Assembly: GCA_040002615.1 (NCBI GenBank) | Contig: JBDUEE010000003.1 | Span: 9,671 to 73,670 of the forward strand | Reading direction: 5' to 3' | Length of the DNA: 64,000 bases | Origin: Chloroflexota bacterium | Lineage (GTDB): Bacteria; Chloroflexota; Limnocylindria; QHBO01 | Part shown: one piece after another, positions 9,227 through 53,694 of the stretch | Layout: every line of letters starts with the position of its first letter | How positions within the stretch are numbered: position 1 is the first letter of the stretch | Notes under the pieces: generated by a model | The model's input: the letters and a program-made list of their open reading frames with translations, nothing else | Databases searched by the model: none | Told to the model about the DNA's origin: nothing | Translations under genes and position numbers: made by a program

Positions 9227-9440
9227 CTGCCCCTGTCCATCGGGGATGTCGTAGAAGCCTGACTCAACGGCGACATTTCAGCGTGTTGGTCTCGTAGGCC
9301 TTGCCATCACGCCAGCGAACCCGAACCATCTCGTTGGTCGCGAAGCGGTTTAGGTATGCACGGGGGACTTGGTGATGGCGTTTCGACCTGGCCTGCATGA
9401 GCGACCAACCTACTCCCTCGGGCGTCGAGCCCTGCGGGTT

Positions 9441-9471
9441 GGGGTATGCCTTGTCTACCTATGCGTACCCC
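9441..9471. promoter_or_regulatory. 31-bp palindromic operator-like motif GGGGTATGCCTTGTCTACCTATGCGTACCCC, 24 bp upstream of the gene at 9495; near-identical copy upstream of paralog at 41358
   Basis: Inverted repeat GGGGTA(T)GC-N13-GC(G)TACCCC; second copy (minus-strand reading) GGGGTATCCCTTGTCTACCTATGCATACCCC at 41381-41411 differs at 2 of 31 positions while the flanking genes are only ~80% identical. Confidence 0.5.
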
Positions 9472-9494
9472 GCCCTTACTGACAAACTCCACAC

Positions 9495-18834: not shown

Positions 18835-19300
18835 TCATTCAGCCCCTTTCTTCGCGGACAGGCGGGCGGCCCCTAGCACGACGAGATTGTGGTTCGCCGC
18901 CTTCTTCGCGGCTTTGTCATCGGACTTCTTGGCCGCGGTGAAGAGCTTGTGGGACTGCTTCCATGGTGCGTCGTCGATCCACAGCAAGGCGCAGCCAAGA
19001 TTGTTCTGCTGGCTCGCGGTAGGATCGCCAATCGCCCCGAGCACTGCCGCCACCCAGTCGTTCAATCCACTGGACTGGCCAGCGAGGCCGACGAGATCCT
19101 TCGCATCTCGTTGGTCACCACTTGGCAGCGTGACCATGGATCCCGGCACGACGGTCAGGCCGACGCGCAGCTCGTCGAGGTCGGCTTGGGGACCGAGCAC
19201 AGGGCCGACATCGGCCGCGCGGGTGTCGTAGTAGAGGTCCCGTGAGACGGCGTCCAACTCTTGGAGGTCGATCCCCTCGGAATCCGAACCAATCATCATG
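18835..19300 (-). CDS. hypothetical protein; start ATG overlaps stop of upstream gene (ATGA)
   Basis: MMIGSDSEGIDLQELDAVSRDLYYD...; gcATGAtg overlap with stop of 19297-20963 gene indicates translational coupling. Confidence 0.45.
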
Positions 19301-20963
19301 CGGGTTCCTCCACGGCGAACAACTTGATTAGGGTTGGCGATGCCAGGTCCATGGACCAGACCCGTTCGCTGCCGTCCTCGGACTCTGGCTCGAGATGCCC
19401 AACCCCGTTGAGGGACAGCCGAGCCGGTTCTCCATGCTCCCACCGACTCCAACTAACGGCGAGTACGACGTGGATAGTTGGCGCAGCTGGCTCGTCGGCA
19501 GCTGGCTCGTCGGCAGCTGGCTCGTCGGCAGCTGGCTCGTCGGCGGAGGTGCCTGGTCCTCGCAGCATTGCCTTGAACGTTGTGGCTCGTGGATCCGCGT
19601 TCTTCTCGAGCTCGATCGCCCAACCGGTAGGCTGGCGAACCTCCAGCTTGATCGTGGCAAGCGGAAGGTCGTAGCGCAGCGCGAGCGCGTTGGTAGGCGT
19701 GGCGAGGGTTACGTGCCACATCAGCTCAGAACGTTTCCGTGGCTCGCTACCTGGGATTACCTCCGGCGTCAACTTGCCGATCCCTGCGTCGACCGGCGCC
19801 GCCAACGGTGCAGCGGCGAAGACTCCCGACTGTGCGTCAACGACGCGGACTTGACCTGCAGTCGCTCCGGCGCCCATCCGCTGCTTAGCCGTGACTGTAA
19901 ACAGGTTGGCGCGGTGGACGGCAACTTGCACCGTCCTGTCCGTTCGGCGGGAGGGCACGTGATTCACGACTTCGGCCGCATAGACCTCCGCGACCGCGAG
20001 GTTGGGTGATGGGCTGACACTAACGGCCTTGCTCTCCTTGGGTTCATCAAATAGATCGGCTGTTTTGGTGCCGGGGTACAGGAGGAACCTCGACGCGGAC
20101 TCCCACAGCTTCTTGGCATCAGCGAAGTCTGCCGCCTTGCGGAGTCCGAGTTCGGTCGCCAGCAGATCGCGATGCAGATCAAAGGCGGTCTCAATGAGAT
20201 CACCCCAACCCACGGCCCGGGCGGCCGCAGCGCGGTAACAGCCATATGCAACTGGGATCGCGACGAGGGCGTACGCCGCGCCCTGGAAGCTTCCATTAAC
20301 AGTCTGGACGACCAGGCCCTCGATGCCGAACAGGGCGAATGAAAGCGCGAGGTTGAGGAGCAGATCCAAAGAACCCCTGGCGTCATCGATCAAGCTCGAA
20401 AGTGCGCTGGCCTCCTTCGCAACGAGGGACTGGAGCGGAGGCCAGCACGCGTTCATGTCGATTCCGTACCGCTGGTAGATGGCAGTCGCGGACGATCCGA
20501 GCGCATTTCCGAGTCGCGTGGGCGTCAGCTGCTGCTCATTTGGCCAGCGAGCAATCTCGTAGGCCAACCACCTATCTTCTGCCAAGTCGCTGTTGGTCTG
20601 CGCAAGATCTCGCGCCACCTCTAGGGCCCGTCGCCGCCCGACCGCGCGACCCAGCATCCAGTTGTAGAGGGGAGTTCCTCGCCAAAGCTCGCCCGTCGCC
20701 AGCCGCAGGAACGTCGAGTTCAGAGAAAGGACGACGTACCCAAGGATAAGGATGAGCACGATCAGGACGGCGATCTTGAGCCCGTCAGGCAACGCCTCGA
20801 GCCCAACGGCCGGACCGAATCCCGCGGCGACAAGCGAGGGATGGATGAACAGGGCGTTAAGGAGGATGAAAACGGTTGCGGGTACGATCGCCGATGGTTG
20901 GACGAGCTTCGCCAGACTCGCGTCCACCGTCGTCTTGAAGAACTCGGCTACGGCGGGCAGCAC
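19297..20963 (-). CDS. hypothetical membrane protein containing a 4x tandem ADEPA pentapeptide repeat
   Basis: 555-aa ORF, several TM helices in the N-terminal half; internal ADEPAADEPAADEPAADEPA encoded by the 15-bp x4 DNA repeat. Confidence 0.5.
19486..19545. repeat. perfect 15-bp tandem repeat x4 (agctggctcgtcggc) inside CDS 19297-20963
   Basis: Direct reading of sequence; in-frame (15 bp = 5 codons), encodes ADEPA x4 on minus strand. Confidence 0.9.
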
Positions 20964-21585: not shown

Positions 21586-21617
21586 GAATATTCCTCACAC
21601 ACTTCCTCACACATTGG
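21586..21617. promoter_or_regulatory. conserved upstream motif CTCACACACTTCCTCACACA..GGG.CTTGAT (second copy at 45135-45166)
   Basis: attcCTCACACACTTCCTCACACAttGGGtCTTGAT (21581-21620) vs attaCTCACACACTTCCTCACACActaGGGcTTGAT (45131-45168); each lies upstream of an operon start (21656 and 45867). Confidence 0.45.
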
Positions 21618-21655
21618 GTCTTGATCTTCGATCGTTGGCGCCGTAGCGTGGTGGC

Positions 21656-21976
21656 ATGCAGGCGATCGTCACCACCCGGGAACTGAGGCGCGACATCCTC
21701 GATCTGGCGGAGCGCGCCTCGGAGGGGGAATCAATCGTCGTGCTGCGGCACGGCGAGCCCGTGGCAGTGCTTCGCAAGGCGCGTCCTGAAGAGAACATGC
21801 GGCGGATGCCGATAGAGCGGTTTCGACGGAACATCGCGAAGTCGCTACGTCAGGCCGAGCGACAGCCGCAGCTCATCACCTGGCATGGCCGCGAATCGCT
21901 GGTGCTCACGTCCCTGGCGGTGGTGCTCTCTCCCGTGCCACCCGACGTCAAGGCCGATCTGGAGGAGGCGCTGTGA
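21656..21976 (+). CDS. Phd/YefM-type antitoxin-fold protein (apparently two tandem Phd-like halves)
   Basis: MQAIVTTRELRRDILDLAERASEGESIVVLRHGEPVAVL (classic Phd/YefM N-terminus) followed by a second ...ITWHGRESLVLTSLAVV unit; first gene of the long coupled operon. Confidence 0.55.
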   Translation: MQAIVTTRELRRDILDLAERASEGESIVVLRHGEPVAVLRKARPEENMRRMPIERFRRNIAKSLRQAERQPQLITWHGRESLVLTSLAVVLSPVPPDVKADLEEAL

Positions 21977-22575
21977 CCATTCGCAACGAGATCCGTGCTG
22001 TGGGCATGCGTGAAGCTCGCGAGAAGTGGCGCACCGTCGTGACCGAGGTCAGGGACGGCCAGCCGATCCTCATCCTGCGCGACCTCCAGCCATCGGCGGT
22101 GATGCTGCAATTCGACGAGGTGCAGCGCTGGCGACGGATCGAGGAGGCGATCTCGGCCTTGCATGGTCTTGAGATCTACCCAGAGCTGGCGCGAAGCAGC
22201 GCCGAACTCGCAGCTCTCGTCCGCGGACAGGAGCATCCCAGTGCCACCGCCATCCGCGGCCTCGCCCGCCAGAGCCGCGACATCCTCGGCGCCCTACGGA
22301 CGATGGCGGTCAGCGATGTACCCCGCGGGTTTGCCGCCCTCCTCGATGAGATCGAGTCGGGCCGGCTGATGACCATCGTCGACAAGAAACAACTCGCTGT
22401 AACGCTGGTCTCGCCACGTGAATACGACCGGCTGCGAGCGCTGACGCTGGCGGTCAACTGGTTCCGCGCAGCAGGCCTCGACCTGGCATCGGCTGAGCCG
22501 GATGCGATCAGCGCCTGGGTAGGCGACTTCCGCGAGCGGCCAGCCGCCGCCGCGTCCGAGGCGCCGGGAGCATGA
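21973..22575 (+). CDS. Phd/YefM-type antitoxin-fold protein, two tandem units; no cognate toxin gene follows
   Basis: AVGMREAREKWRTVVTEVRDGQPILILRDLQPSAVMLQFDE and LMTIVDKKQLAVTLVSPREYDRL; 4-nt overlap with previous gene. Confidence 0.5.
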   Translation: MTIRNEIRAVGMREAREKWRTVVTEVRDGQPILILRDLQPSAVMLQFDEVQRWRRIEEAISALHGLEIYPELARSSAELAALVRGQEHPSATAIRGLARQSRDILGALRTMAVSDVPRGFAALLDEIESGRLMTIVDKKQLAVTLVSPREYDRLRALTLAVNWFRAAGLDLASAEPDAISAWVGDFRERPAAAASEAPGA

Positions 22576-39688: not shown

Positions 39689-40411
39689 TCAGAAAAGTGT
39701 GCTGCGCTCCGCTTCCTGAAGGATGCGGACGAGGGAGATGGTTGCCTGTGCGGTCGCGAAGGCCATGAGGCGTGTCGGCGCCTTGTGATGAGTCAGAGCG
39801 TTTGCCAGGACGATGAGCTTGCGGATGAGGCCCCGAACCGCCGAGTTGGCGGCGCCGCTCAGCATCATGTCTGCGTAGAAGCCGAGTCGCTCCTCGGCAT
39901 CGGATCGTCCCGGGATCGGTTGGCCTGCCGGCACCATCACATCCATGAACGCGACGTTTGCAGCCTCAATGACGATCTCCCGGCACCGCCGTCCGATGTC
40001 GGCCCAGTCGTCGGTCGAAGTGCCGCGCTCCAGCTCACCGATCATCTCAGCCAACCGCGCATCCACCGTCTTCCACGTTGGATCACCAACGGACCCGGTG
40101 TCATCCGGAACCTGGGCAGCAGCAGCGCGCGCCTCAAGATCATCCAGGAGTGGTCCGACGAGCTCGTTGATCTGGGCGCGCCGGTCTGCGTAGCCGTCCG
40201 CCCAGGCTCGATACCACTCCCAGAGGCTGCGCCATGGGAACGGATCGGCCAGGCCGATCGCGTCCAGAGAGAAGCGCAACTCACGGCGCCGCTCCTGATA
40301 TCCATCGTCTACGTCGTCGATGCGCGGCCCGCCCGTCGCCACGGCGATGAGCAAAGCAGCCTGTTCCTTGACGAGGTCAATCAAGTCGTCGAGGGAGCGA
40401 GCGGTCTTCAT
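39689..40411 (-). CDS. module gene B, right copy (paralog of 10441-11430, lacks Tudor-like tail)
   Basis: MKTARSLDDLIDLVKEQAALLIAVATGGPRIDDVDDGYQERRREL... aligns along its length with left copy (~50-60% aa identity). Confidence 0.5.
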   Translation of the reverse strand: MKTARSLDDLIDLVKEQAALLIAVATGGPRIDDVDDGYQERRRELRFSLDAIGLADPFPWRSLWEWYRAWADGYADRRAQINELVGPLLDDLEARAAAAQVPDDTGSVGDPTWKTVDARLAEMIGELERGTSTDDWADIGRRCREIVIEAANVAFMDVMVPAGQPIPGRSDAEERLGFYADMMLSGAANSAVRGLIRKLIVLANALTHHKAPTRLMAFATAQATISLVRILQEAERSTLF

Positions 40412-41358
40412 GATGCGGCCTCGATCTGCCTCGGGGCAGCGGAGGACCGAGCCCGATAGCGCCGCTTGGCTGCTCGCTTCTTGCAGGTCGTACCGCAGTA
40501 GAGCTGGCCGTATCCGAGAGCGCGTCGGCCGACGAAGACCCCGCAATCAACGCAGCGCATCGATCCCCGCGTCGTCGGCAGCCGGGTCGTTTCCAGCAAC
40601 TCGTCGACAAAGTCGATGACAGCGGCTCGCATCAAGACATACATGCGGTAGGAGAGGGCGACCGAGCCGCCCATCCCCATGCTTGCCTCGAAACTGATGC
40701 TCTCCAGCGAGGTGGGGTCGTAGGTGCCGTCTTTCTCCTCGGCGTGGAGGCTTGGGGATTGCTCCTGGTAGTAGGCGTTGATGAACTCCAGGTCGTCCTG
40801 AGTCCACCCATCCCTTTGACTGGGGTCGGCAGGCCAGGTCTTCTGTGCCACTTCGTAAAGGCCACCAAGCTGGCCTATCCAGTCCAGATGCTCGCGTAAC
40901 CGGTAGACGAGAAGTGGCTTGTCGCCGCTAGCGATCATCGCATCGACGCGACGTCGCTCGGCCGGGGTGATTGGGACCCGCTTGAGGAAACCTCGGAGGT
41001 GCGTGTGCTCCTCAACGATGAGAACCTGGCGCTCACCTCCGAACCACCAGTCCTCGATCTCCTCGTTCGTCATGGGGTGGCGAGTACTGGCGTGCGCCCA
41101 GCTGGTGATCGCGTCGCGATGCTCCGTCCAAAGCCGGTGTCCTATCACCGCCGACTCGACTTCCTGCTCAATCTCCAGGCGGTTCTCGGAAGTACGCAGT
41201 ACGTCGGCCATCATTCCCATGAAGTACGTCCAGCCGCTCCATCGCGGGGAGACCGCATCAAGGAGCGGGAGGTATATCCCTGGCGTCGGTGACGGACCGG
41301 CAAAGTTGACGACATCGCGCCAGAGGCCACCTGTCGTAAGCGGAGTCATCGAAGGCAT
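40408..41358 (-). CDS. module gene A, right copy (CGNR-like zinc-ribbon protein; paralog of 9495-10436)
   Basis: MPSMTPLTTGGLWRDVVNFAGPSPTPGIYLPLLDAVSPRWSGWTYFMGMMADVLRT... ~75% aa identity to left copy, same C-terminal Cys motif. Confidence 0.6.
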   Translation of the reverse strand: MPSMTPLTTGGLWRDVVNFAGPSPTPGIYLPLLDAVSPRWSGWTYFMGMMADVLRTSENRLEIEQEVESAVIGHRLWTEHRDAITSWAHASTRHPMTNEEIEDWWFGGERQVLIVEEHTHLRGFLKRVPITPAERRRVDAMIASGDKPLLVYRLREHLDWIGQLGGLYEVAQKTWPADPSQRDGWTQDDLEFINAYYQEQSPSLHAEEKDGTYDPTSLESISFEASMGMGGSVALSYRMYVLMRAAVIDFVDELLETTRLPTTRGSMRCVDCGVFVGRRALGYGQLYCGTTCKKRAAKRRYRARSSAAPRQIEAAS

Positions 41359-41779: not shown

Positions 41780-44650
41780 TTGAAGAAACCGCCGAAGTGG
41801 ACCCGCGGCTCGGAGTGGCTGCGCTGGGATCCGCACATCCATGCGCCCGGCACATTGATGAACGATCAGTACGCGGGCGACTGGACCGGGTACTTCAATG
41901 CAATTGCGTCGGCTGACCCAGCGCCAGTGGCGTTGGGGATCACCGACTACTTCACCTTGGCCGGGTACAGGGAGTTCCGCAACCAACGCCCACCTGGATC
42001 GCTTCCAGCGGTCCAGATGGTATTCCCCAACGTCGAGCTGCGGCTTACGACCGAGACGAGACGCGGCCACGCGATCAACCTCCATCTGCTTGTCTCGCCA
42101 GACGATCGGAGGCACGTCGAAAAGTTCGAAGAGCGGCTATCTCACGTCCGCTTCGAATACGGCCCAACGCACTTTCCATGCAGCGATCGAGGGCTCATAG
42201 ATCTTGGTCGTGCCTTCCGCAATGACGAAACGCTGGCAGAGGCTGCTGCGATGTCAATTGGCGCCGGCCAGTTCAAGGCGGAATTCAGAGAGATCCTCGA
42301 GCTCTTCGACGACGGATGGTTTCGCGACAACGTCTTGATGGCGGTCGCCGCGGGTCAGGATGGCCTCGGCGGGCTGTCGCAGGACTCTCAGTGGGCGGCA
42401 GTACGCGAGAATATCGGCCGCGCGTCCGACATCATCTTCTCGGGTTCTGAGAACGAGCGGTCCTTCTGGTTGAAGCCTGGAGGGACCCTGCCCCGTCGTC
42501 CCTGCCTCCACGGCTCCGACGCGCACTCGCTCGCGAAGGTCCTGAAGCCGGACGAGGCTCGCCTCTGCTGGATCAGAGGCGATGCGACTTTTGAGAGCCT
42601 GAAGCAAGCCGTCATCGAGCCCGAGCGGAGGGTCTTCATTGGGCGTACGCCACCACGCGGCGCCTCTGAAGGCTATGTGATGTCCGACCTGGTGCTGAGC
42701 GGCGCTTCTTGGATCGAGAACGATCAGCTCTCCTTCAACGACGGGCTGGTTACCATCATCGGCGCGAAGGGCTCCGGCAAGACGGCCCTGGCCGACCTGT
42801 TGGCACTCTTCGCTGGCGCCGACGAGCCCGCGCCGGGCAACGCCTCGTTCATTAGGAAGGCCCGACATTTGCTTGGGGGATTGAAGGGCGTATTGACCTG
42901 GGGCGACAGGACTTCTCAGACAGCGGTTGCGCAGCCCCAACCGCAGCCGTCAACCGAACCGCGAGTCCAGTATCTATCGCAGCAGTTCGTTGAGCGCTTG
43001 TCGGCCCCGGAAGAACTCGGAGAGCCACTTGTAGAAGAGATCGAGCGCGTCGTCTTCCATGCGATACCCGAAGAGAAGCGCATGCAGGCAACCTCCTTCG
43101 GCGAGCTCCGCGACCTACTCCTTGAGGATGCGCGCGCCAGCCAGGCGTTTCACAGGGGGACAATTACGTCCCTGACGAGAGCCGTCGCTGCCGAGATCGA
43201 CCTGAAACGCAGCATCCCGAGTCGCCAGAAGAAGGTCGAGGAGGCCGAGCGGGAGCGCAAAGGACTGCAGAAGGACATTGCATCGATACCGGCCGCGGCC
43301 AGTGCGGAAAAGGCCAAGGTCCACACGGATGCGGCGAACGCTCTTCAGGCGTTGCAGCAGGCCAATGCGGTAAAGGAGCGCCGCGCCAAGGACCTTAGCC
43401 TCCTTGCTGGAGAAGTGCGACGCCAACTCCTAGCCGCAGACCAATCGTGGGGCCAGCTCAAGGTCACCTATCCGGATCTCATCGACGATACGACCTGGAC
43501 CGCGTTGAGGCTCCGGCTTGATCCGGCTGGCTTGCAGCGCCTTGCGGACCTTGAGGCGGAAGCCCGCAAAGAGGCGGAGGCCCTCCAGGACCAGGGGCTG
43601 CCCTCCGTCGCCCGGCCAAGTGCCACCGCCTCTAAACCGGCCGGCCTCGAACAACTCAAGGCACGTCTGGAGCAGGCCGTGAAGGAACTCGGTCTTGACC
43701 GGACCAATGCCACGCGCAAGGTCGACCTGGAAAGACGGCTCGTCGGCGTCAAGGCAACTGAAGAGCAAGCGAGGAGAGAGTTGGCCAACGCTCTTGGGGC
43801 GGAAGCGCGGCAAAAGGAAGCCCACGAGAAGCGGCTCGAAGCCTATGACGCGGTCTTCCAGACCCTAAGCCAGGAAGAAGACGAACTAGAGAGGCTCTAC
43901 GCGCCCCTCCTGGGTCGGTTGACTGGGTCCAAATTGGCGTTCACCGTTCAACGCGTGGTCGGACTCAAGGCATGGGTTAAGAAGGGTGAGGAGCTGCTGG
44001 ATTTGCGCACCGCACCGTTCAGCCAACAGGGGTACCTAGAAGAGCAAGCCCGATCGCTGCTGTTGAAGGCGTGGCTCACAGGTACGCCCACCGAGGTGCG
44101 TGCGGCCATGCGTGCATTCCTCGAAAAGGTTGCCGGTGATGCGCTGAAGTCGCTTGTCCAGAGCGCGAGCCCAATGGATCTTGGCGAGTGGTTGTTCTCC
44201 ACCAATCACATTCGCGTCCGCTACGGCATCGAGTACGAGGGCGTCGAAATCTCCAATCTGTCTCCTGGCACGCGGGGCGTCGTTCTCCTGACGCTTTACC
44301 TGGGCTTGGACGAATGGGACCCGCGTCCGCTCGTGATCGACCAGCCCGAGGAAAATCTCGACCCAAGCTCGATCTATGACGACCTCGTCCCTTGGTTCCG
44401 GCTGGCAGCGAAGCGCCGCCAAATCGTGATGGTGACGCATAACGCCAATCTCGTAGTGAACACAGATTCAGACCAAGTCATCGTGGCGCGCGCAAAACGC
44501 GACAAGCCGCAGGGATTGCCACACGTTACGTACGAGGCAGGCGGGCTGGAGGACCCAGACATCAGGGAAGCGGTGTGCAGCCTGCTGGAGGGCGGCAAGG
44601 AAGCGTTCCGCCTGCGGGGTGAGCGCTACAAGCTCAACGTTCGGGCGTAG
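41780..44650 (+). CDS. single-chain PHP-phosphoesterase + SMC/Rad50/SbcC-like ABC ATPase fusion (candidate defence or DNA-processing nuclease)
   Basis: N-term WLRWDPHIHAPGT...HAINLHLLV...CLHGSDAHS (PHP His clusters); Walker A IIGAKGSGKTALADLL; ~350 aa coiled-coil (Glu/Lys/Ala/Leu-rich); C-terminal signature region and Walker B/D-loop LVIDQPEENLD, H-loop VMVTHNANL. Confidence 0.7.
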   Translation: MKKPPKWTRGSEWLRWDPHIHAPGTLMNDQYAGDWTGYFNAIASADPAPVALGITDYFTLAGYREFRNQRPPGSLPAVQMVFPNVELRLTTETRRGHAINLHLLVSPDDRRHVEKFEERLSHVRFEYGPTHFPCSDRGLIDLGRAFRNDETLAEAAAMSIGAGQFKAEFREILELFDDGWFRDNVLMAVAAGQDGLGGLSQDSQWAAVRENIGRASDIIFSGSENERSFWLKPGGTLPRRPCLHGSDAHSLAKVLKPDEARLCWIRGDATFESLKQAVIEPERRVFIGRTPPRGASEGYVMSDLVLSGASWIENDQLSFNDGLVTIIGAKGSGKTALADLLALFAGADEPAPGNASFIRKARHLLGGLKGVLTWGDRTSQTAVAQPQPQPSTEPRVQYLSQQFVERLSAPEELGEPLVEEIERVVFHAIPEEKRMQATSFGELRDLLLEDARASQAFHRGTITSLTRAVAAEIDLKRSIPSRQKKVEEAERERKGLQKDIASIPAAASAEKAKVHTDAANALQALQQANAVKERRAKDLSLLAGEVRRQLLAADQSWGQLKVTYPDLIDDTTWTALRLRLDPAGLQRLADLEAEARKEAEALQDQGLPSVARPSATASKPAGLEQLKARLEQAVKELGLDRTNATRKVDLERRLVGVKATEEQARRELANALGAEARQKEAHEKRLEAYDAVFQTLSQEEDELERLYAPLLGRLTGSKLAFTVQRVVGLKAWVKKGEELLDLRTAPFSQQGYLEEQARSLLLKAWLTGTPTEVRAAMRAFLEKVAGDALKSLVQSASPMDLGEWLFSTNHIRVRYGIEYEGVEISNLSPGTRGVVLLTLYLGLDEWDPRPLVIDQPEENLDPSSIYDDLVPWFRLAAKRRQIVMVTHNANLVVNTDSDQVIVARAKRDKPQGLPHVTYEAGGLEDPDIREAVCSLLEGGKEAFRLRGERYKLNVRA

Positions 44651-44746
44651 GGGCCGCGGCGCCAGCCGGCATGGTCGCGCCCCGAGCGCTGGCACCTTCC
44701 GCTGTCAACGACCGCGGCCCACACGTGGGGCTTTACGAACGACCAC

Positions 44747-45105
44747 TTATTTGATCGCCTTGCGGAACAGGAGCGCGAACTGCTCCGAGAAGCTGCCCGC
44801 TCGGCGCACGTGGATGTGCGTGCGCGCGTCGCCCGGCCGCTCGCGGAACTTGCGCTCGGTGCGCTCCGGGTTGTCCGCGCGCCAGGCGAAGCCGCACTTC
44901 TCCAGCGGCCGAAGGGGTCGACCGGCTCAAGAGAGACGACCGAGATCTGCACGTCGATGATCGGCTTCGCCGCCAGATCGGGCACGGCAGTCGAGCCGAT
45001 GTGGTCGATCCGCAACGCCACCTCGCCCAGCGCCGAGCGCAGGCGGTCCCCGAGCTCGGCGAAGCGTATTGGCCACGCCGGGTCGTGGTCGACGACGACC
45101 AGGGC
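44747..45105 (-). pseudogene. GrpB-family (UPF0157, nucleotidyltransferase-like) gene, frameshifted and lacking a canonical start
   Basis: LVVVDHDPAWPIRFAELGDRLRSALGEVALRIDHIGSTAVPDLAAKPIIDVQISVVSLEPVDPF | (frame change at cccc run) RPLEKCGFAWRADNPERTERKFRE...AGSFSEQFALLFRKAIK*. Confidence 0.55.
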
Positions 45106-45134
45106 TTCGGCAGTCGGCCTGCCGGCTTAAGAAT

Positions 45135-45166
45135 TACTCACACACTTCCTCACACACTAGGGCTTG
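45135..45166. promoter_or_regulatory. second copy of CTCACACACTTCCTCACACA..GGGCTTGAT motif, 700 bp upstream of Ubl operon
   Basis: see 21586-21617. Confidence 0.4.
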
Positions 45167-45866
45167 ATACCGGCCTTTGCACGCACTAACGTAGATCGTG
45201 GCGGTCGGTCTCACGGCTGGCTCTCTCAAGTAACAGCGGGTTGACCGACCGCCGCCATCACCTCAGATCGAGGTTGGCGGAGTCTCCCGCCACGGACTCC
45301 CACGGCTTACCGCCGCGATCCCACCCAGTGCCGGCGCCAGGAGCCTCATTTACAGGCTTCGACGACAGCTCACCTTACCAACCGCATACACGCTGCCATT
45401 CGCGCTTCACCTCGAACGCGCGTACCGCACGCACAACCACGGCGCCTCCGCCTGAAGGTTCCGGACGGGCTCGGCTGACCGATCGGTCATCTGTGAGGAA
45501 TGCTCCTCGGATGTTTCGCTTCGGCTCGACCGGCTCGCTCTCGATGAGGGCGGGTGCGTCGGGCCGTCTCGGGATACCGGGTGTCCTCAACGCAGATGCG
45601 ATCGGCGACAGCGGGCTCGCTCCCAACACCGGCGGCGGAAATCTCCGCGCCACGAAAGGAGGGATGCCCTCAGTCGTCTTCGGTCGACACCGGCGGCGAG
45701 CGCCCGCCGTTGATCGTTCAGCTCTTTGAGCGCTCTCCGGGACCGAGCTCGGCCGCAAGGCGTGCGGTGTCAAGCGAACGAGGTGGCATGTGTGCGAACG
45801 CACCTCGTGGGCGCTGCCCGGTCCTTTCTCGTGTTCGCGACGTAAGCAAGCACAAGGAGATCAATC

Positions 45867-46103
45867 GTGCAGACCTACGAGGATACGGCCGTCAAGGTCG
45901 TGTACGGCGTCAACGAGCTCAGTCTCGACCTGGGCGGCAAGAGCATCCGCAGCATCTGGAAGATGCTGGAGCAGGTGCTCAACCTGCCGCGCGAGACGAC
46001 GGTGCGGGTCAACGGCCAGATCGTGGCCGACGACCACATCGTGCGTTCGGGGGACGAGATCGACTTCCTCAAGCCGGCCGGCGTTAAGGGCCTCGCTGCC
46101 TGA
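45867..46103 (+). CDS. ubiquitin-like beta-grasp protein (BilA-like / ThiS-MoaD-like), C-terminal ...KPAGVKGLAA
   Basis: 78 aa, GTG start after RBS AAGGAGA; TVRVNGQIVADDHIVRSGDEIDFLKPAGVKG resembles ThiS/MoaD C-terminal half; first gene of E2/JAB/E1 operon. Confidence 0.5.
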   Translation: MQTYEDTAVKVVYGVNELSLDLGGKSIRSIWKMLEQVLNLPRETTVRVNGQIVADDHIVRSGDEIDFLKPAGVKGLAA

Positions 46104-46196
46104 GACATCAGCCGGAAGGGCGGGGCAGTCCGAGCGGCACCAGACGGTGCATTCGGACCGCCCCACCTCAGCCCTTGAGGAAAGGAGCTCGAAGAC

Positions 46197-46979
46197 ATGT
46201 CCATGCATTCGCGCAAGTACCTGCGCATCGAAGGGGACCTGGCCACGCTGGTGACCGAGGTGACCGAGCGCGAAGTCGCGCTCGACGATCTTCTGTCCAG
46301 ACTGGCCGAGCAGCGGTCGGCGATCAGCGGGATGCTGCCCGCCGGCTGCCGCTTCTGGGTCCGCTCTCCCGAAGGGCGGGAGGTGTTCGTGGTCGAACAG
46401 CTCCCCATGCGCCGCCAGGTCGAGTACCACGCCAGTAATCGATACGGCAGCGAGCCGGTGATCCACCGACTCGCCCTGCCGTACGTGGTGTTCGTGGTCT
46501 CAACCGCCGACGGTCGCATCGAGAGCCTCGCCACCTTCTTCCGTACCAGCGCGCTGCGATCACTTGACGATCCGCTCGAGCACAGCTGCCTGCCCAACAC
46601 CTCCGACGACGGCATCGTCTGTCTCGGATCGGTTCATGTTGGCGGTGACAGCCTGGCCGAGCGCACCGACGGACTGATTGGAGCGTTCTGGGGGTCACGC
46701 TTCAACGCCGACATCCGGCGCCATCCGCTGCCGTTCAGCGGTGGCTTCCGGGCGTGGGCGTCTCGCTCGCGACGGGATCCGATGGCGGGCCTGTCGGCCC
46801 AATACGACCGCTACTGGCGCAGCCTGCGCCAGGTGGTGGCCGCGGGGGCCGGCATGAGCCCCACCGACCTGCCCGGCGCGCCGGTCGACGGCGAACAGGC
46901 GCAGGCGACGGTGGAGACACCGACGCCCAGCCAGGCACCGCCTCCGCAAGGAGGTGAGCCCGATGCGGAAGCTGCTTGA
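46197..46979 (+). CDS. UBC-type E2-like protein (BilB-like)
   Basis: HSCLPNTSDDGIVCLGSVHVGG matches the E2 active-site HPN-x(6-7)-C-L motif; 260 aa. Confidence 0.5.
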   Translation: MSMHSRKYLRIEGDLATLVTEVTEREVALDDLLSRLAEQRSAISGMLPAGCRFWVRSPEGREVFVVEQLPMRRQVEYHASNRYGSEPVIHRLALPYVVFVVSTADGRIESLATFFRTSALRSLDDPLEHSCLPNTSDDGIVCLGSVHVGGDSLAERTDGLIGAFWGSRFNADIRRHPLPFSGGFRAWASRSRRDPMAGLSAQYDRYWRSLRQVVAAGAGMSPTDLPGAPVDGEQAQATVETPTPSQAPPPQGGEPDAEAA

Positions 46980-47226
46980 GTCGATGGCCCGCTGCGGGAC
47001 GCTCGAGTCGACCCGCACGACGGCACTGCTCAGCCCGCGCCGAGCGGTGTACGCCACCGATGGCTCGATCCCCGGCGAACTGGCCAACGCTGCCTTCGCC
47101 GTGGCGGCCAAGCTGCTCAGAGATGGAGGCTTCCCCCTCCGCGACGAGCGGCTGGCCGAGCCGAGACGCTTCGCTCAGCTCGAGCGCATCGTCTACTGGC
47201 TGCCCGAGACCGAGGTGGGCTCATGA
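46963..47226 (+). CDS. small hypothetical protein within Ubl-conjugation operon
   Basis: 87 aa, RBS AAGGAGGTG 6 nt upstream of ATG; no domain recognised. Confidence 0.3.
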   Translation: MRKLLESMARCGTLESTRTTALLSPRRAVYATDGSIPGELANAAFAVAAKLLRDGGFPLRDERLAEPRRFAQLERIVYWLPETEVGS

Positions 47227-48062
47227 GCCTCTTTCCGATCATCGCCGCGGACGAGTCCGCGGCCGAGGAGGTCTCACTCCCCGCCTTCCTGGTGGCCCGC
47301 GACGGGCTCTACCTGCGCAAGCGCAGCCTGCTTGGGCTGTCGCAGGTGCAGGTCGACGAGGTGGCCCACCTGCCAGCGGCACGCGAGTACCTCGAGTACG
47401 CGTTACCCAAGGTGCCCGCCTCGCTGATGGCTGAGGTGGTCGGCTTCTTCCGCGCCATCTGGTCGCGGCAGCGCTCGGAGGCGCTGGCGCTGCTGACCTG
47501 GGATGGCTCAGCCTTCGGGTTGATCGTTCCCAAGCAGCGCGCCGGAGCCGCATCGGTCAAGCACCGGCTCGAGACGAGCGATGTGCCCAGCGGGGCACAC
47601 CTGGTCGGCTCGATCCACAGCCACGGCGCACTGAGCGCCGGGGCCAGCCTGACCGACGAGGCCGACGAGGCCGACTTCGACGGCATCCACGTGGTGGTCG
47701 GCGATGTCGATGAGCGGCGGCCGAGCTATTCGGCCGCGATCGTGGTCGACGGCCGACGCTTCGGCTGTCGCACCAGCCTCGTCTTCGAGCAGCCGCGACG
47801 CTTCACCGAACCCCCGGCCGAGTGGCTGGAGCGGGTGAAGCCGATCGTGACCGCACCGACGAAGGCGAAGGCCAACGGCCACGCCAGGACGAGCGGGAAG
47901 GCTCCATCGACGGAGTCGACCTGGACCTCGCGCGACCGCCATACGCTCGACGGCCTCCTGAGCGAGGCCGTCGGGCTGGCCGCCGAACTGGGCGAGAGCC
48001 TGGTCTATCAGCTGACGCCGATCGCGACGTCGGCTGCGAAAGGAGGAATCTCCGATGCCTGA
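47223..48062 (+). CDS. JAB/MPN (JAMM) metalloprotease-domain protein (BilC-like deubiquitinase/peptidase)
   Basis: HLVGSIHSHGALSAGASLTDEAD = JAMM HxHx7Sx2D motif; ATGA overlap upstream. Confidence 0.6.
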   Translation: MSLFPIIAADESAAEEVSLPAFLVARDGLYLRKRSLLGLSQVQVDEVAHLPAAREYLEYALPKVPASLMAEVVGFFRAIWSRQRSEALALLTWDGSAFGLIVPKQRAGAASVKHRLETSDVPSGAHLVGSIHSHGALSAGASLTDEADEADFDGIHVVVGDVDERRPSYSAAIVVDGRRFGCRTSLVFEQPRRFTEPPAEWLERVKPIVTAPTKAKANGHARTSGKAPSTESTWTSRDRHTLDGLLSEAVGLAAELGESLVYQLTPIATSAAKGGISDA

Positions 48063-48750
48063 GCGCATCGTCCTCGTCGGACTGGGCGGCATCGGCAGCC
48101 AGTTGCTGCCGAGCCTGGTCCGCTACGTGGCCTTCCGGCCCGAACCGCGCCCGATGCTGGTGCTCGTCGACGGCGACGCCTACGAGCCGGGCAACCGGAC
48201 GCGGCAGGTCTTCCCCGAGAGCGCCATCGGTTCCAACAAGGCCGAGGCCTTGGCCGAGGTGTATCGGGGCCTGACGGTGCAGGGCATCGCCGACTACCTG
48301 ACGGAGGCGAATGTCGCCACGGTGATCCGTGACGGCGACGCCGTCCTGCTGGCAGTCGACAACCACTGGACCCGTTTCGTGGTCGATCGGCACCTCGCCA
48401 CCTTGGACGAGGTGACGCTCATCAGCGGCGGCAACGACGAGACGGACGGCAACGTCCAGCTCGTCCGCCGCCGGGGTGGTGAGTTCGTCGACGGCAGCCT
48501 GGCCGAGATCCACGTGGAGATCGGTCGGGCCACCGAAGCCGAGTTCGCGGCCCGCGATGGCTGCGAGCGGCAGATCGAGGAGCGACCCCAGTTGGTGGTC
48601 ACCAACCTGATGGTGGCCTCCGCGATGCTCAACTGCCTGTGGGCGGTGCTCGAGCGCGGCAGCGTGTCCTACTCCGAGGTGTACCTCGACGTGATCGCGA
48701 ATGCGATGAGATCGCGCTCATGGTTCCGTCAGAGGCAGCCTGGGGCGTAG
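48055..48750 (+). CDS. ThiF/MoeB-type E1-like activating enzyme (BilD-like)
   Basis: IVLVGLGGIGSQLL Rossmann GxGxxG, ...DGDAYEPGNRTRQ..., 231 aa; overlaps JAB gene by 8 nt. Confidence 0.6.
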   Translation: MPERIVLVGLGGIGSQLLPSLVRYVAFRPEPRPMLVLVDGDAYEPGNRTRQVFPESAIGSNKAEALAEVYRGLTVQGIADYLTEANVATVIRDGDAVLLAVDNHWTRFVVDRHLATLDEVTLISGGNDETDGNVQLVRRRGGEFVDGSLAEIHVEIGRATEAEFAARDGCERQIEERPQLVVTNLMVASAMLNCLWAVLERGSVSYSEVYLDVIANAMRSRSWFRQRQPGA

Positions 48751-48842
48751 GGCGGTTACCTCACAAGGTGAGGACCTGGCCGGGGAGGCGCCATGCGGCG
48801 CTCCCCGGCCGATCCAACCCAACACACACAGAGAACGATGCG

Positions 48843-50060
48843 ATGAACGGTCCGGCCCTGGCGCGACAACCGAATCCACTCCCCAACCCGTTCCGACCTG
48901 GGAACGGGGTCCCGCCACCCCACCTGGCCGGACGCGACCAGTTGCTGGCTAATTTCGAGGACTGGCTGCTCGAGGGGCCACCGCTGCACGCCAACTGGGC
49001 GCTGACCGGCCTGCGCGGCACAGGCAAGACGGTGCTGCTCGGCGAGTTTGCGACGAGAGCCGAGCGCGCCGGCTGGCTGACCCTTCAGCGCGAGCTCGGC
49101 GACCGTCACCGCGACGACATCCGACTGGCTGAAGCCATCGCAGAGGACTGCGACGCGCTGATTGGCCGCGCCGACGCCCTCGCAGCCGTCGGACAGGCGA
49201 TCGGGAGCGGCGCCCGCTGGCTGCGGCCGCGCCGGATCAGCATCGGCGAGGTCAGCGTCGACCCAGCGTATGCATCGCAGGCGCGCGCGCCCACGGACCT
49301 CATGCGTACGGCGCTCGCCCAGCTCGACTCGATCCTCAGCCACGCCGAGCGACCGGGTGCCATCCTCCTATACGACGAGGCCTACCTCCTCGCTGACGAC
49401 CGCGGCCGGGAACGCTTCCCGTTGTCCGGCCTGCTCGCCGCCCTCGGCGCGGTGCAGCGCCAGCGGCCACGCGTGCGGATCGTCCTCTGTGGGCTGCCCA
49501 CCCTGAGCCTCAACCTCAAGCGCGCTCGGACGTACGCCGAGCGCATGTTCCGTCACGCCGTGGTTGGCAACCTCGAGCTCGATGCGGCCGAGGAGGCGCT
49601 GGCCATTCCGCTGGCCGCCAGCCGACGCAGCTTCGGGCTGTCGCTCATCACCGAGATCGTGGAGCAGACGGCGGGGTATCCCTACTTCCTCCAGTTCTTC
49701 GCTGCCTTCGCCTGCAGCCGGATCGGGCTTGAACACATCGAGCTCGCGGACTACCAGCGGGTCGAGTCGGCGCTGCTCCACGAACTCGACCTCGCATTTT
49801 TCGAAGATCGCTTCGAGGGTGCTCCGCCAAGCGAGCAGGTCCTGCTATTGGCGATGGCGCGGGCGGGCGGGCGGGTCGGCCTGGCACGGCTCGGGACTGA
49901 GATACCCGTTGGCCTCAACGTGCCGGTCGGCCTGCGCCGCCTGATCGACCGCGGACTGGTCTACCGCCCGACGCGGGCCACATACGACTTCGCGCTGCCG
50001 CTCTTCGGGCCGTATCTGCGGCGGCGGCCGAAACTAACAAAGTTATCGTCGAGGCGATAA
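48843..50060 (+). CDS. AAA/ORC-like ATPase with C-terminal winged-helix (Arch_ATPase/AAA_16-like), immediately upstream of integrase
   Basis: Walker A LTGLRGTGKTVLL, Walker B AILLYDEAY; 6-bp gap to integrase gene. Confidence 0.55.
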   Translation: MNGPALARQPNPLPNPFRPGNGVPPPHLAGRDQLLANFEDWLLEGPPLHANWALTGLRGTGKTVLLGEFATRAERAGWLTLQRELGDRHRDDIRLAEAIAEDCDALIGRADALAAVGQAIGSGARWLRPRRISIGEVSVDPAYASQARAPTDLMRTALAQLDSILSHAERPGAILLYDEAYLLADDRGRERFPLSGLLAALGAVQRQRPRVRIVLCGLPTLSLNLKRARTYAERMFRHAVVGNLELDAAEEALAIPLAASRRSFGLSLITEIVEQTAGYPYFLQFFAAFACSRIGLEHIELADYQRVESALLHELDLAFFEDRFEGAPPSEQVLLLAMARAGGRVGLARLGTEIPVGLNVPVGLRRLIDRGLVYRPTRATYDFALPLFGPYLRRRPKLTKLSSRR

Positions 50061-50065
50061 TTTCC

Positions 50066-51010
50066 ATGCAGCCCGTCCCGTCAGCCGCGCAGCAGCCTTT
50101 CGACCCGCCACTTGGCGAGTTGATTGCTGACTACGAGCAGTCGCTGCGCGCCGATCGGCACAGCATGCGGACGATCGACTGGTACCTCGCCTTCCTGCGC
50201 GAGTTCTGCTCGTTCGCCCAACGACCCAGCGAGAGTGCCTCGCTTCGACACCTCTCCACCCCGATCGTCCGTCGCTGGCTGGTGGCTTTGGAATCACGGC
50301 CCATACCCCCAGCACCGTCGAGCCTCGCCGGCCGCGTCCGCACCCTGCGCGCGTTCGCCGCGTGGGTGCAGCGCGAGTACGACCTGGAGCAGCATCCCCT
50401 GAGGAGGCTCAAGACACCGCGCGTGCCGCGCACGATCATTCACTCCTTGCGCGACGCTGATGTGGGCGCGCTGCTAGCCGCCGCTCGCCAAGGCAGCCTG
50501 GGGGACCGAGATGCTGCCCTCATCACGTTCATACTCGACACGGGTGTGCGGGTGAGCGAGGTAGCCGGTCTGCGGATGGGAGACGTCGACTTCGAGAACG
50601 CCGTGTGCCGGGTAGTCGGCAAGGGCTCGAAGGAACGACGGGTGCCGGTCGGGCGACGGGCGCGTCGGGAGCTTCGGCGCTACCTGGCTCAGCGCAGGCG
50701 CCCGCCGCCCGACGCTCCGCTATTCATGGCCGAGCACGGCGAGCCCTTGACGCGGTGGGGAATCCAGAAGATCGTGCGTCGCGTAGCACAGCGCGCCGGA
50801 CTCCAGACACGCTGCTCTCCTCACATACTGCGTCACACCTTCGCCCGAGCCTTCCTCACCAACGGCGGAGACGTGTTCTCCCTCCAGCGCATCCTCGGCC
50901 ACAGCCCCGCGTCGCTCGACATCACGCAGCGCTATGTCGAGTTGCTCGACGAGGACCTGCGCGAGGTCCATCGCCGAGCGTCGCCGATGGACCAGTGGCG
51001 GAGCGGTTGA
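50066..51010 (+). CDS. tyrosine site-specific recombinase, XerC/XerD-like (short form, no arm-binding domain)
   Basis: R...HTLRHTFA (CSPHILRHTFARAFL), LGHSPASLDITQRYVEL (catalytic Tyr) motifs; 314 aa. Confidence 0.85.
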   Translation: MQPVPSAAQQPFDPPLGELIADYEQSLRADRHSMRTIDWYLAFLREFCSFAQRPSESASLRHLSTPIVRRWLVALESRPIPPAPSSLAGRVRTLRAFAAWVQREYDLEQHPLRRLKTPRVPRTIIHSLRDADVGALLAAARQGSLGDRDAALITFILDTGVRVSEVAGLRMGDVDFENAVCRVVGKGSKERRVPVGRRARRELRRYLAQRRRPPPDAPLFMAEHGEPLTRWGIQKIVRRVAQRAGLQTRCSPHILRHTFARAFLTNGGDVFSLQRILGHSPASLDITQRYVELLDEDLREVHRRASPMDQWRSG

Positions 51011-52188: not shown

Positions 52189-52881
52189 TCACCTCCCGCT
52201 TGACCTGACCTGGCCACCGGCGCTAACGCCCGGATACTCGGGACGGTTCATGAACCCGATGCGGTCGAGTGGGAAGTAGCGTAGCCAGGCCCGACCGATG
52301 ATCAGATCGCGTTCGATGGGACCGAAGGAGCGGGAGTCCTGGCTGTCCGGGCGGTTGTCGCCCATGACGAAGTACTCTCCCTCGGGGACGACCCACTCCG
52401 TTTCGCCGCTACCCCGCGGCAGAGTATCCACTAGGCCGCCGTCCGCCTTCTCGCGAAGGTAGGGCTCCGACAGCTTGATCGGTAGGCCGTACGGCGGGGT
52501 CACGAAGACATCGCCATTTTCCAGCCGAACCGTGTCGCCAGGCAGGCCGATGACGCGCTTGATGAACGGCACGCCGCCCTGCTGCTCGAAGCCGGGCGGA
52601 GGCTGGAAGACGATGATGTCGCCCCGCTCGTACTCCCCGAAGCGGGGCGAGATCTTGTCGATCAGGACGTACTCGTCTGCGAAGATGGTCGACTCCATCG
52701 AGCTCTGCTCGACCTCGAACGGCTGGGCGATGAAGTTGTGGATGAGCAGGTAGATGACGAGGGTCAGGACCAGCGTCTCGACGATCTCTAGCAGACAGCC
52801 GAGCCCGCGACGCGAACCGGTCTGCGCGACCGGCGGCGCGGGCGCAGCGTCGCCGGGCGTCTGCTCCGGCGTGTGGGTCAT
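52189..52881 (-). CDS. lepB: signal peptidase I
   Basis: SMESTI (catalytic Ser box), KRVIGLPGDTV (Lys box), GDNRPDSQDSR motifs; N-terminal TM. Confidence 0.85.
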   Translation of the reverse strand: MTHTPEQTPGDAAPAPPVAQTGSRRGLGCLLEIVETLVLTLVIYLLIHNFIAQPFEVEQSSMESTIFADEYVLIDKISPRFGEYERGDIIVFQPPPGFEQQGGVPFIKRVIGLPGDTVRLENGDVFVTPPYGLPIKLSEPYLREKADGGLVDTLPRGSGETEWVVPEGEYFVMGDNRPDSQDSRSFGPIERDLIIGRAWLRYFPLDRIGFMNRPEYPGVSAGGQVRSSGR

Positions 52882-53039
52882 CAGCGCTCCGAATCAACTG
52901 GTCAGCAGCCCCTTCACAATCATGCTGTATGAGAACCCGTGGCCATCCTGCTGGCAGTGCGCAAATAGTAGCGCTTCCCAAATGCCACTTCGGCTGCTGG
53001 AATCACCCAGCCAGTCGCCACAGCCTCGATCCGTGGATG

Positions 53040-53420
53040 ACGCTTTACGTGGGCTCGCATCCGTCGCGCTTCGCGAGTGGTTGGAGTGGCTGGGCGCTCA
53101 TGAGCGGATCGTGCCAGTCGGCACCACCGCGCGGCAGGCGCTGGCGCGCTACCTGCGCCAGGGTGATGACGCAGCGGGCGGGGTCATCTTCCGCTCGCGT
53201 CGCGGCGGCGCGCTGGGCTGGCGTGGCATCCAGCAGGCCTTCCGGCGCCTCAAGTTGCGGGCCGGCATCCCCGGGCGTTGTAGCCCGCACACGCTGCGTC
53301 ACACCTTCGCGCGGGCCTACCTGGTGAACGGCGGCGACGCGTTCAGCCTGCAGCGCATCCTCGGCCACGCGACGCTGGACATGGTCAAGCGATACGTGGC
53401 GCTGGCGGACACTAGGCGGA
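53040..53420 (+). pseudogene. C-terminal remnant (~130 aa) of a second XerC/D-like tyrosine recombinase, paralogous to 50066-51010
   Basis: ...ERIVPVGTTARQALARYL...CSPHTLRHTFARAYLVNGGDAFSLQRILGHATLDMVKRYVALADT; no N-terminal core-binding domain, no proper start. Confidence 0.6.
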
Positions 53421-53694
53421 CGGCCCCAGCGCGGAACTCGCGCGGGCGAGGGCTTGGGTTTCGGCATCGGTACTCTCACCGCGGGCTCGCGGCGCCTACT
53501 CTCAGGGCGTCCACCGAATCGCAACGCCAAGTGAACGTGGCGACCCCTCTCCTCACTTCCGCCGATCGGGTCTCGCGCGGCCGATGCCGGTCGAAGCGGC
53601 CTACGTGGCGCCGGACATCCGAAATCGGGTATTGACCCTCAACCGCAGACCCTGCCGTCTAAGATGCCCTGCGCCCGTATGAGGCGGGAACCGG

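Follow-up and report, generated by a model that had tools for sequence, protein, structure and literature searches.

The stretch analysed here, referred to below as the window, comprises 64,000 nt of contig JBDUEE010000003.1 (positions 9,671 to 73,670 of the forward strand) from the Chloroflexota genome assembly GCA_040002615.1. Five genes on its plus strand, at 45867-48750, appear to form a complete module for conjugation of a ubiquitin-like protein (Ubl). The closest described class is operon type 6d of Iyer et al. (2006; PMC1779556), the type related to Prok-E2_D and PRTRC, and by its sequence the cassette is best regarded as a variant of that type and as a member of neither the Bil nor the PRTRC systems. 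It is situated between the genes for relaxase and integrase of an integrative conjugative element (ICE) with a type IV secretion system (T4SS). Our best explanation for the whole, to which we give a probability of roughly 0.6, is that this 6d-class module belongs to the conserved backbone of a Chloroflexota ICE and most likely serves the element itself.

Organisation and recurrence of the cassette

The gene order on the plus strand is Ubl-E2-small-JAB-E1. The gene for the Ubl precursor (45867..46103, 78 aa) is followed by those for an E2-like protein with a probable UBC fold (46197..46979, 260 aa), a small open reading frame (ORF; 46954..47226, 90 aa if started at GTG, 87 aa if started at the ATG at 46963), a JAB/JAMM metallopeptidase (47223..48062, 279 aa) and a minimal E1 of the ThiF/MoeB type (48055..48750, 231 aa). 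All five co-directional ORFs had been assigned to these products in an initial annotation of the DNA, and all were found where it had placed them. Its description of overlapping stops and starts holds for three of the four junctions, i.e., E2/small (26 nt), small/JAB (4 nt) and JAB/E1 (8 nt), but not for Ubl-E2, where the genes are separated by a gap of 93 nt.

Scanning of one genome per species revealed 58 loci with the cassette, and at every one of them where the contig extends far enough it was whole and in unchanged order. Nearly all of the loci belong to metagenome-assembled genomes (MAGs) of Chloroflexota (Limnocylindria and 'Chloroflexia'). Several of these MAGs had 2-4 copies, with up to four contigs from one MAG. 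Because the cassette recurs at 58 loci and its motifs are invariant, the five ORFs are, judged from their sequences, not a chance set.

The E2-like protein gave 227 homologues in a word-index search, mostly 60-92% identical and from Chloroflexota metagenomes, and a full scan with a hidden Markov model (HMM) of its family gave 1485 relatives. A second word-indexed search with a diverse E2 profile returned essentially the same Chloroflexota clade and nothing further. No match to the E2 was obtained by tblastn among the PLSDB plasmids and INPHARED phages, and none in viral contig scans with the E2 alignment A1 and protein P0210, while tblastn with the JAB against PLSDB reached plasmid relatives that the E2 query had missed. 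The E2-like domain was also observed at the C-terminus of many proteins of 460-780 aa (P0152-P0263), the N-terminal regions of which had no Pfam match; one of these proteins gave a weak membrane match of the EI24/CysZ type.

The Ubl precursor

The Ubl of the window ends with KPAGVKGLAA and matches the Pfam family ThiS (3.3e-6). All intact orthologues keep AGVKG, followed by a tail of 1-3 residues which varies in length as well as in sequence (LAA, QSI, HTA, R, HAR, ICA and QQA among others). G75 is kept in the intact orthologues and invariant in alignment A6, as expected from the conserved C-terminal Gly of type 6d. A more distant relative was found on a contig of 148 kb (JGI 3300041024, locus L063), where a 213-aa protein encoded at 9281-9922 consists of three head-to-tail Ubl copies. 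Every repeat ends in (A/Q)SGSKG, with the tail VQSITLVV after the last one; the repeats have 41-43% identity with the Ubl of the window, and their ends coincide with the Gly75 column. Going by the alignment, this layout is that of polyubiquitin. The gene adjoins an E2 which is 27% identical to that of the window, a 119-aa protein, a JAB and a ThiF. Small co-directional ORFs are numerous in the surroundings of this locus, where a reverse transcriptase, an RNase H and a Lar-like gene for restriction alleviation were also found. Relatives without any tail were found as well: PRTRC protein C of Aromatoleum ends in AGTKG, and the Ubl of a Metabacillus plasmid ends in GGAKG. The hhalign comparison of the Ubl profile with PRTRC-C was weak (probability 16%, P 0.0017) and was used for the shared terminal motif only.

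The invariant AGVKG with its variable tail, together with the tri-Ubl repeats each ending in SGSKG, points to trimming after Gly75. By its sequence the Ubl is clearly a precursor, with a predicted mature end at Gly75 and with LAA as the tail that would be removed. The natural reading is a cut after Gly75 which would most simply be made by the co-encoded JAB. The proposal that a short C-terminal extension after a Gly is a signature of maturation gained in weight from the invariance of AGVKG, the variability of the tail and the poly-Ubl relative.

The E2-like protein

The motif L132-P133-N134-x7-C142-L-G is located in LPNTSDDGIVCLG. The protein scored 22.6 bits (9.7e-5) with the Pfam family Prok-E2_D (PF14460), for which the gathering cut-off is 25; relatives such as P0149 (34.9 bits) exceed this cut-off, and a precomputed annotation as PF14460 is attached to many of the homologues. 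LPN-x7-C was invariant among close homologues, and among representatives at 50% identity the Asn was kept in 119 of 125 and the Cys in 119 of 124. Cys142 is accordingly our candidate for the catalytic Cys. No invariant His was present after the Cys in alignments A1 or A3, H147 being confined to the closest homologues and replaced by Arg elsewhere.

The first AlphaFold2 (AF2) model of the protein, built from 17 close homologues, was poor, with a predicted local distance difference test (pLDDT) of 53, and was rejected together with its Foldseek search, which was meaningless. A model built from an alignment of 28 sequences, including relatives with 25-35% identity, reached pLDDT 86, with the Pro/Glu-rich C-terminal tail disordered. 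A Foldseek search with this model gave nothing significant, and comparison of the E2 and the JAB with solved structures in PDB gave no sequence relative. Profile-profile comparison with four human E2s resulted in one local alignment (probability 30%, P 5e-4), which places N134 on the Asn of HPN and C142 on the catalytic Cys. We consider the evidence for a UBC fold as coherent but moderate. An E2-like protein without the His of HPN, with a conserved Cys and with a probable UBC fold is what has been described for type 6d.

The small protein, the JAB and the E1

An ORF of 85-92 aa between the E2 and the JAB was present in 45 distinct loci where it could be extracted, with a median identity of 28%, and it overlaps both of its flanking genes. 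Its consensus, ..EEAAL.VLA....P.RE.L..ER.RFERL...V.RLP., contains a conserved motif rich in E and R. No family match was obtained for it in scans of Pfam, NCBIfam and PADLOC. This small and fast-evolving protein seems to be of the same kind as the 'alpha-helical protein' in operon type 6d.

The JAB has the motif H132-S-H134-x7-S142-x2-D145 and matches NCBIfam PRTRC_A (4e-11) and Pfam Prok-JAB (1e-3), both under the cut-off. Residues E86, H132, H134, S142 and D145, as well as R32 and W93, were invariant in 38 sequences. About 85 residues precede the JAMM core, and R32 and W93 there are the N-terminal Arg and Trp expected of a type 6d JAB.

The E1 starts with MPERIVLVGLGGIGS, which includes the Rossmann motif G9-L-G-G-I-G14, and it scored 3.7e-18 with Pfam ThiF and 2.3e-12 with PRTRC ThiF. 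Its best matches were ThiF, MoeB and Uba4. Alignment to MoeB (1jw9_B) covered GLGGIG, D39/D41, R50, K62 and D102-N103, all of which are kept; we take these to be the nucleotide and Mg sites of MoeB. The pair G169-C170 was invariant in 44 sequences, and Cys170 is a candidate for the thioester Cys of the E1. By the MoeB alignment and the conservation across 44 sequences, the E1 keeps its adenylation residues. The initial annotation had named in advance the observations that would speak against its reading of the cassette, namely absence of a UBC fold and of a conserved Cys, or an E1 lacking the adenylation residues. We found instead a model with pLDDT 86, a conserved Cys and intact adenylation residues.

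Since the best Pfam match of the Ubl is ThiS, and those of the E1 are ThiF, MoeB and Uba4, the genes could also be read as a sulfur-carrier cluster of the ThiS/MoaD type, in which the E1 adenylates and thiocarboxylates a small protein and the JAB trims it, as with CysO/Mec+ or QbsE. Sulfur carriers trimmed by a JAB do exist. However, the conserved cassette includes an E2-like protein whose Cys is conserved, and neither rhodanese, ThiG, MoaE and cysteine synthase nor other sulfur genes were found among the scanned neighbours in the window and the related loci. The Ubl C-terminus is moreover KG (VKG plus tail) and not GG, and the context is a conjugative element. We regard a sulfur-carrier function as highly improbable.

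Relation to described systems

The description of operon type 6d (Iyer et al., 2006; PMC1779556) names a small beta-grasp protein whose C-terminal Gly is highly conserved, an alpha-helical protein which diverges rapidly and has conserved charged residues, an E2-like protein in which the HPN His is missing and the Cys is kept, a JAB having an N-terminal domain with conserved Arg and Trp, and an E1. An absolutely conserved His C-terminal to the catalytic Cys was also part of that description (PMC1779556). The window cassette shares with type 6d the list of five components, with the small protein as putative counterpart of the alpha-helical one, the N-terminal extension of the JAB with its Arg and Trp, the ThiF-like E1 and the carriage on a mobile element. 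It differs in that its E2 family lacks a conserved His after the Cys and its E2 scores just under the PF14460 cut-off, in the order Ubl-E2-small-JAB-E1, in the small protein of only ~90 aa, and in its host, as Chloroflexota were absent from the original list. The JAB relatives in PLSDB originated largely from organisms listed for 6d, i.e., Nostoc PCC 7120, Trichormus variabilis, Bacillus-group plasmids and Aromatoleum EbN1, and some of them were annotated as 'PRTRC system protein A' or adjoined a 'prokaryotic E2 ligase family D protein'. The Metabacillus E2 matched the family profile with 94.5% probability. In that plasmid locus the Ubl and the small protein have swapped places relative to the window.

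PRTRC (NCBIfam TIGR03735-03742), as found for example on plasmid 1 of Aromatoleum aromaticum EbN1, has several features in common with the cassette. The best or only NCBIfam matches of the window JAB, E1 and E2 are PRTRC A, ThiF and B, respectively, the C-terminal AG(T/V)KG of the Ubl is common to PRTRC protein C, and both systems occur on mobile elements. However, the scores are far under the cut-offs (42.9 vs 101.8 for A, 46.8 vs 144.75 for ThiF, and 17.3 vs 131.45 for B), and neither a ParB-family protein nor PRTRC E or F was found among the cassette proteins or the scanned neighbours. The PRTRC order, ParB-E-C-F-B-A-ThiF, is also different, and PRTRC-C stops at the Gly without a tail.

The initial annotation had assigned the cassette to a BilABCD-like system. 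Indeed, both have separate genes for Ubl, E2, JAB and E1 in similar order (Ubl-E2-x-JAB-E1 here), and the Gly with its non-conserved tail resembles type II BilA, where a conserved Gly is followed by a non-conserved tail which is removed before adenylation. The thioester relay is presumably common chemistry. Type II Bil corresponds to Iyer class 6C, whereas the window cassette comes closest to class 6D. The E1 of Bil is a multi-domain protein, in which one adenylation domain is active, another is inactive and a CYS insertion is present, and the Cys of BilB has a conserved His next to it, while the window E1 is a single adenylation domain of 231 aa and the window E2 has a Cys with no conserved His by it. 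The window has, in addition, the extra small protein and the N-terminal domain on the JAB. PADLOC models gave no match for the Ubl, the E2 and the JAB (BilA/B/C), with the reservation that PADLOC 2.0.0 may lack type II models, and the PADLOC BilD model matched the E1 at 1e-3 only, over the Rossmann part. The Bil assignment was abandoned because of the lack of BilA/B/C matches, the single-domain E1 and the absence of a conserved His after the E2 Cys.

Other related systems differ more clearly. Bub (6E) consists of fused Ubl-E2 and JAB-E1 proteins with the DUF6527 protease BubE, and uses Ser/Tyr oxyester chemistry without a catalytic Cys; in the window cassette the genes are separate, the E2 Cys is conserved and no DUF6527 match was obtained among the proteins. 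Cap2/Cap3 of type II cyclic-oligonucleotide-based antiphage signalling systems (CBASS) comprise an E2-E1 fusion, with a CD-NTase as the 'Ubl', and neither of these is present in the cassette. Five bacterial operon classes with E1, E2 and JAB were predicted in 2006. Published studies cover 6B (type II CBASS), 6C (type II Bil) and 6E (Bub), and 6A is listed in NCBIfam as an anti-phage system.

The conjugative element

The conjugation genes of the element are located at 22-39.6 kb of the window. They include a PrgI/ParA-like protein, a CpaF/VirB11-type ATPase, two TadB/C-like proteins, RcpC, a VirB4/TraG-type ATPase, an SLT+M23 wall hydrolase, a coupling protein and a Replic_Relax relaxase. At the other side of the cassette, an AAA_16 P-loop ATPase of ~400 aa (48840..50060, plus strand; Pfam AAA_16 5e-6) is followed by a XerC/D-like tyrosine recombinase, the integrase (50066..51010, plus strand; Phage_integrase 1.8e-36), which is thereby 1.3 kb downstream of the cassette. 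Location of the cassette inside a mobile element and next to an integrase, as the initial annotation had it, agrees with both groups of genes.

A locus with 92% identity (L004) has the order VirB4 - SLT/M23 - coupling protein - relaxase - leader and cassette - N6/N4 DNA methyltransferase - AAA_16 - excisionase-like HTH protein - integrase. The leader, a structured region upstream of the Ubl gene described below, comes there directly after the relaxase, and the integrase is of another type than that of the window. Relative to this locus the window has 5.4 kb of extra DNA between relaxase and leader. It contains a gene for a 956-aa protein of the TrlF family (41780-44650), combining PHP with an ABC/SMC-like ATPase (NCBIfam 2e-171; PADLOC match to the anti-phage protein Ppl at 2e-26 over the C-terminal part), inserted alongside a fragment of a GrpB gene (44626-45021) and two uncharacterised genes on the minus strand (39689-41358). 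In further loci, e.g., L001, the upstream position is taken by metal-resistance cargo. Among 39 loci with at least 6 kb of flank on that side, upstream co-directional homologues of the relaxase were found in 17 and of the coupling protein in 15. AAA_16 was found downstream in 36 of the 48 loci with enough flank, where it abuts or overlaps the integrase start, and integrase homologues were found downstream in 18 of the 48. Plasmid relatives adjoin ParB, primase, methylase and other plasmid genes.

Across these loci the cassette keeps its place close to the end of the element that carries the integrase and, by this position, behaves like a fixed module, with varying DNA upstream of the leader. 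Such a combination argues, though not conclusively, against the cassette being a cargo defence gene. The AAA_16 ATPase probably belongs to the integration/regulation module of the element rather than to the Ubl cassette. A regulator, an accessory protein of recombination and a sixth component are candidate roles for this ATPase. A search for direct repeats of attachment (att) type bounding the element gave nothing convincing, and no tRNA genes were found in the window.

Operator and structured leader

An operator-promoter module at 45133..45168 (plus strand) consists of the direct repeat CTCACACA-N4-CTCACACA followed by the -35-like GGGCTTGAT, with a -10-like hexamer TAACGT ~17 nt beyond. A second copy of 36 nt, 89% identical, was found at 21590..21625 (plus strand), ahead of the conjugation (T4SS/Tad-like) operon, and the form of the 36-nt module is ATT(C/A)CTCACACACTTCCTCACACA..GG.CTTGAT. 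The motif CTCACACAC occurs at 45137, 45149 and 21594, three times as compared to 0.4 expected, and the 20-mer CTCACACACTTCCTCACACA exactly twice in the window (21594 and 45137) as compared to 0 expected. The first genes after the copy at 21590, heading the conjugation operon, encode two Phd/YefM-like proteins (21656-21976 and 21973-22575). Such proteins are possible repressors. Other loci have GTACAC-N6-GTACAC before TTGA at the equivalent position. A simple sigma-70 scan called no promoter at the module or in the leader; the putative promoter at 45133..45168 is proposed from conservation only. Because the operator is common to the Ubl operon and the conjugation operon, we infer that the Ubl operon is co-regulated with the transfer genes. 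The unusually long leader of about 700 nt with the CTCACACAC motif, reported in the initial annotation, is matched by a span of 734 nt that begins with the repeat at 45133 and reaches the start of the Ubl gene.

Most of this distance is taken by a conserved structured leader of ~680 nt (45187..45866, plus strand), the probable 5' untranslated region (UTR) of the Ubl operon, which was aligned across 27 loci. Its DNA sequence is conserved even where the proteins of two loci are ~60% identical. RNAalifold analysis of the 27 sequences resulted in 95 pairs with 94.4% of the cells paired. Compensatory (both-side) changes were found in 36 pairs, a number equalled in none of 500 shuffles, and slid controls gave 8-15. 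G-U cells amounted to 267 and A-C cells to 65. Since G-U exceeds A-C 4:1 on the coding strand, an RNA on the plus strand is favoured, with a bias in the test as the structure was predicted on the plus strand itself. A single-strand DNA promoter or an origin of transfer (oriT) was also considered for the leader and was disfavoured by the same excess. Rfam searches (E<=1, over 40-53 kb) gave chance-level matches only, with none for the leader. From its covariation the leader looks like a candidate for a new modular cis-regulatory RNA.

A short upstream ORF (uORF) in the leader (45664..45729, plus strand) has 21 codons in the window and 7-8 in several other loci, and it stands behind a conserved GGAGG(G/T)GATG. 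Most of the aligned leaders have kept this Shine-Dalgarno (SD) sequence with its ATG, while the peptide varies in sequence and in length. The start codon of the uORF is followed by a conserved GC hairpin, CCGGCGG..CCGCCGG (45689-45711). A weak terminator-like site called at 45808-45820 seems not to be conserved in the leader alignment. In three loci (L005, L006 and L055) the leader was duplicated, and in L005 the first copy precedes a gene for a helix-turn-helix (HTH) protein.

Role of the module

The position in the backbone, the shared operator and the plasmid contexts of relatives (ParB, primase, methylase) suggest that the module most likely serves the element, through establishment in a new host, control of transfer, counter-defence or exclusion of rivals. 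As a more specific and tentative proposal, the module may be a device for establishment or counter-defence, co-induced with the transfer genes and gated by the leader and uORF, which would tag proteins of the recipient or host (e.g., factors of defence or proteolysis) or transfer proteins of the element.

The initial annotation took the integrase nearby as a sign of a defence system. On that reading the cassette would act in a Bil-like antiviral manner, i.e., the Ubl would be attached to a phage structural protein, the assembly would be blocked, and the element would thereby benefit its host. Besides the equal list of parts and the resemblance of the Ubl tail to type II BilA, the reading is favoured by the antiviral function of other tested Iyer classes (CBASS type II, Bil and 6A-MBL), by the adjoining Ppl-related ATPase and by the frequent location of defence genes on mobile elements. 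Against it stand the missing PADLOC matches for Ubl, E2 and JAB and an E1 architecture and E2 family unlike those of Bil. Furthermore, the cassette is met again in elements that have diverged, with upstream cargo that changes from locus to locus (metal resistance in L001, the TrlF-family gene in the window), the operator of the cassette is also that of the conjugation operon, and relatives are found beside ParB, primase and other plasmid genes. The step from integrase proximity to defence is weak, given that the cassette recurs with genes for conjugation and integration, has an operator in common with the former and does not look like variable cargo. A role as host antiviral cargo is in our judgement the less likely one, and the Bil-like form of it unlikely, although it deserves to be taken seriously as an alternative.

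An addiction or exclusion module was speculated upon by Iyer et al. (PMC1779556). The opposed activities of tagging (E1/E2) and untagging (JAB), directed at a host protein, would then make loss of the element harmful or block related elements. That the opposed activities are co-encoded, that the cassette is carried on mobile elements, and that several related elements coexist in one genome would all fit. There is, however, no toxin-like component, and the sequence does not separate this idea from other roles that serve the element, so that it overlaps with our best explanation. Taken as an explanation of its own we find it rather improbable.

Several points weigh against a module that is active and serves its element. 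The E1 begins at the first Rossmann strand, without the N-terminal helix which in MoeB supplies the Arg finger, so that, on this comparison, its activity cannot be taken for granted. Of the loci whose upstream flank extends for at least 6 kb, about half are without a conjugation gene within 10 kb, and the 'backbone' status is partly an assumption that cargo was inserted upstream, as in the window. That the module serves the element is deduced solely from where it is located and from its co-regulation. Genuine defence systems do occur on mobile elements, and the Ppl-related ATPase of the TrlF family is located just upstream of the cassette. Finally, literature searches on the 6D/PRTRC class found no experimental study, either biochemical or genetic.

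Our preferred explanation, a conjugation module in the service of the ICE, leads to the following possible course of events. Transcription would start from a promoter guarded by the CTCACACA direct-repeat operator, the same one that would control the conjugation operon, and the ~680-nt structured leader with its short uORF would probably gate the expression of the Ubl operon. The Ubl would be made as a precursor and cut after Gly75 by the JAB metallopeptidase. The ThiF-type E1, with its intact residues, would adenylate Gly75 and probably form a thioester on Cys170, from where the Ubl would be transferred to Cys142 of the UBC-fold E2. The E2 may then attach it to lysines of target proteins, possibly aided by the small fast-evolving protein, and the JAB may also remove the Ubl from the targets. 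This chemistry is proposed because the motifs are intact and by analogy to what is established for E1, E2 and JAMM enzymes and for Bil.

If the module does serve its element, mobile DNA would be a user of ubiquitin-like tagging in bacteria and not just its target, and a role in establishment or counter-defence would give the 6d/PRTRC class, predicted in 2006, its first function. The window offers a compact and intact lineage of 6D, in the backbone of a Chloroflexota element and with an operator in common with transfer genes, and the structured leader is, in its own right, a candidate cis-regulatory RNA of a new kind. The value of the observation is limited by the fact that systems of this kind were predicted already in 2006 and that the hosts are uncultured. 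Cultivable relatives on plasmids of the Bacillus group or of Nostoc are better experimental entry points.

Other features of the window

A second and shorter tyrosine-recombinase gene is located at 52754-53635, 2.5 kb past the first one. The two recombinase genes share a stretch of 149 nt with 70% identity (50754-50902 and 53220-53368), and a gene for a signal peptidase S26 (52189-52881, minus strand) is placed between them. Far upstream, at 19483-19542, four perfect tandem copies of the 15-nt unit GCAGCTGGCTCGTCG were observed inside a long minus-strand ORF (19296-20963).

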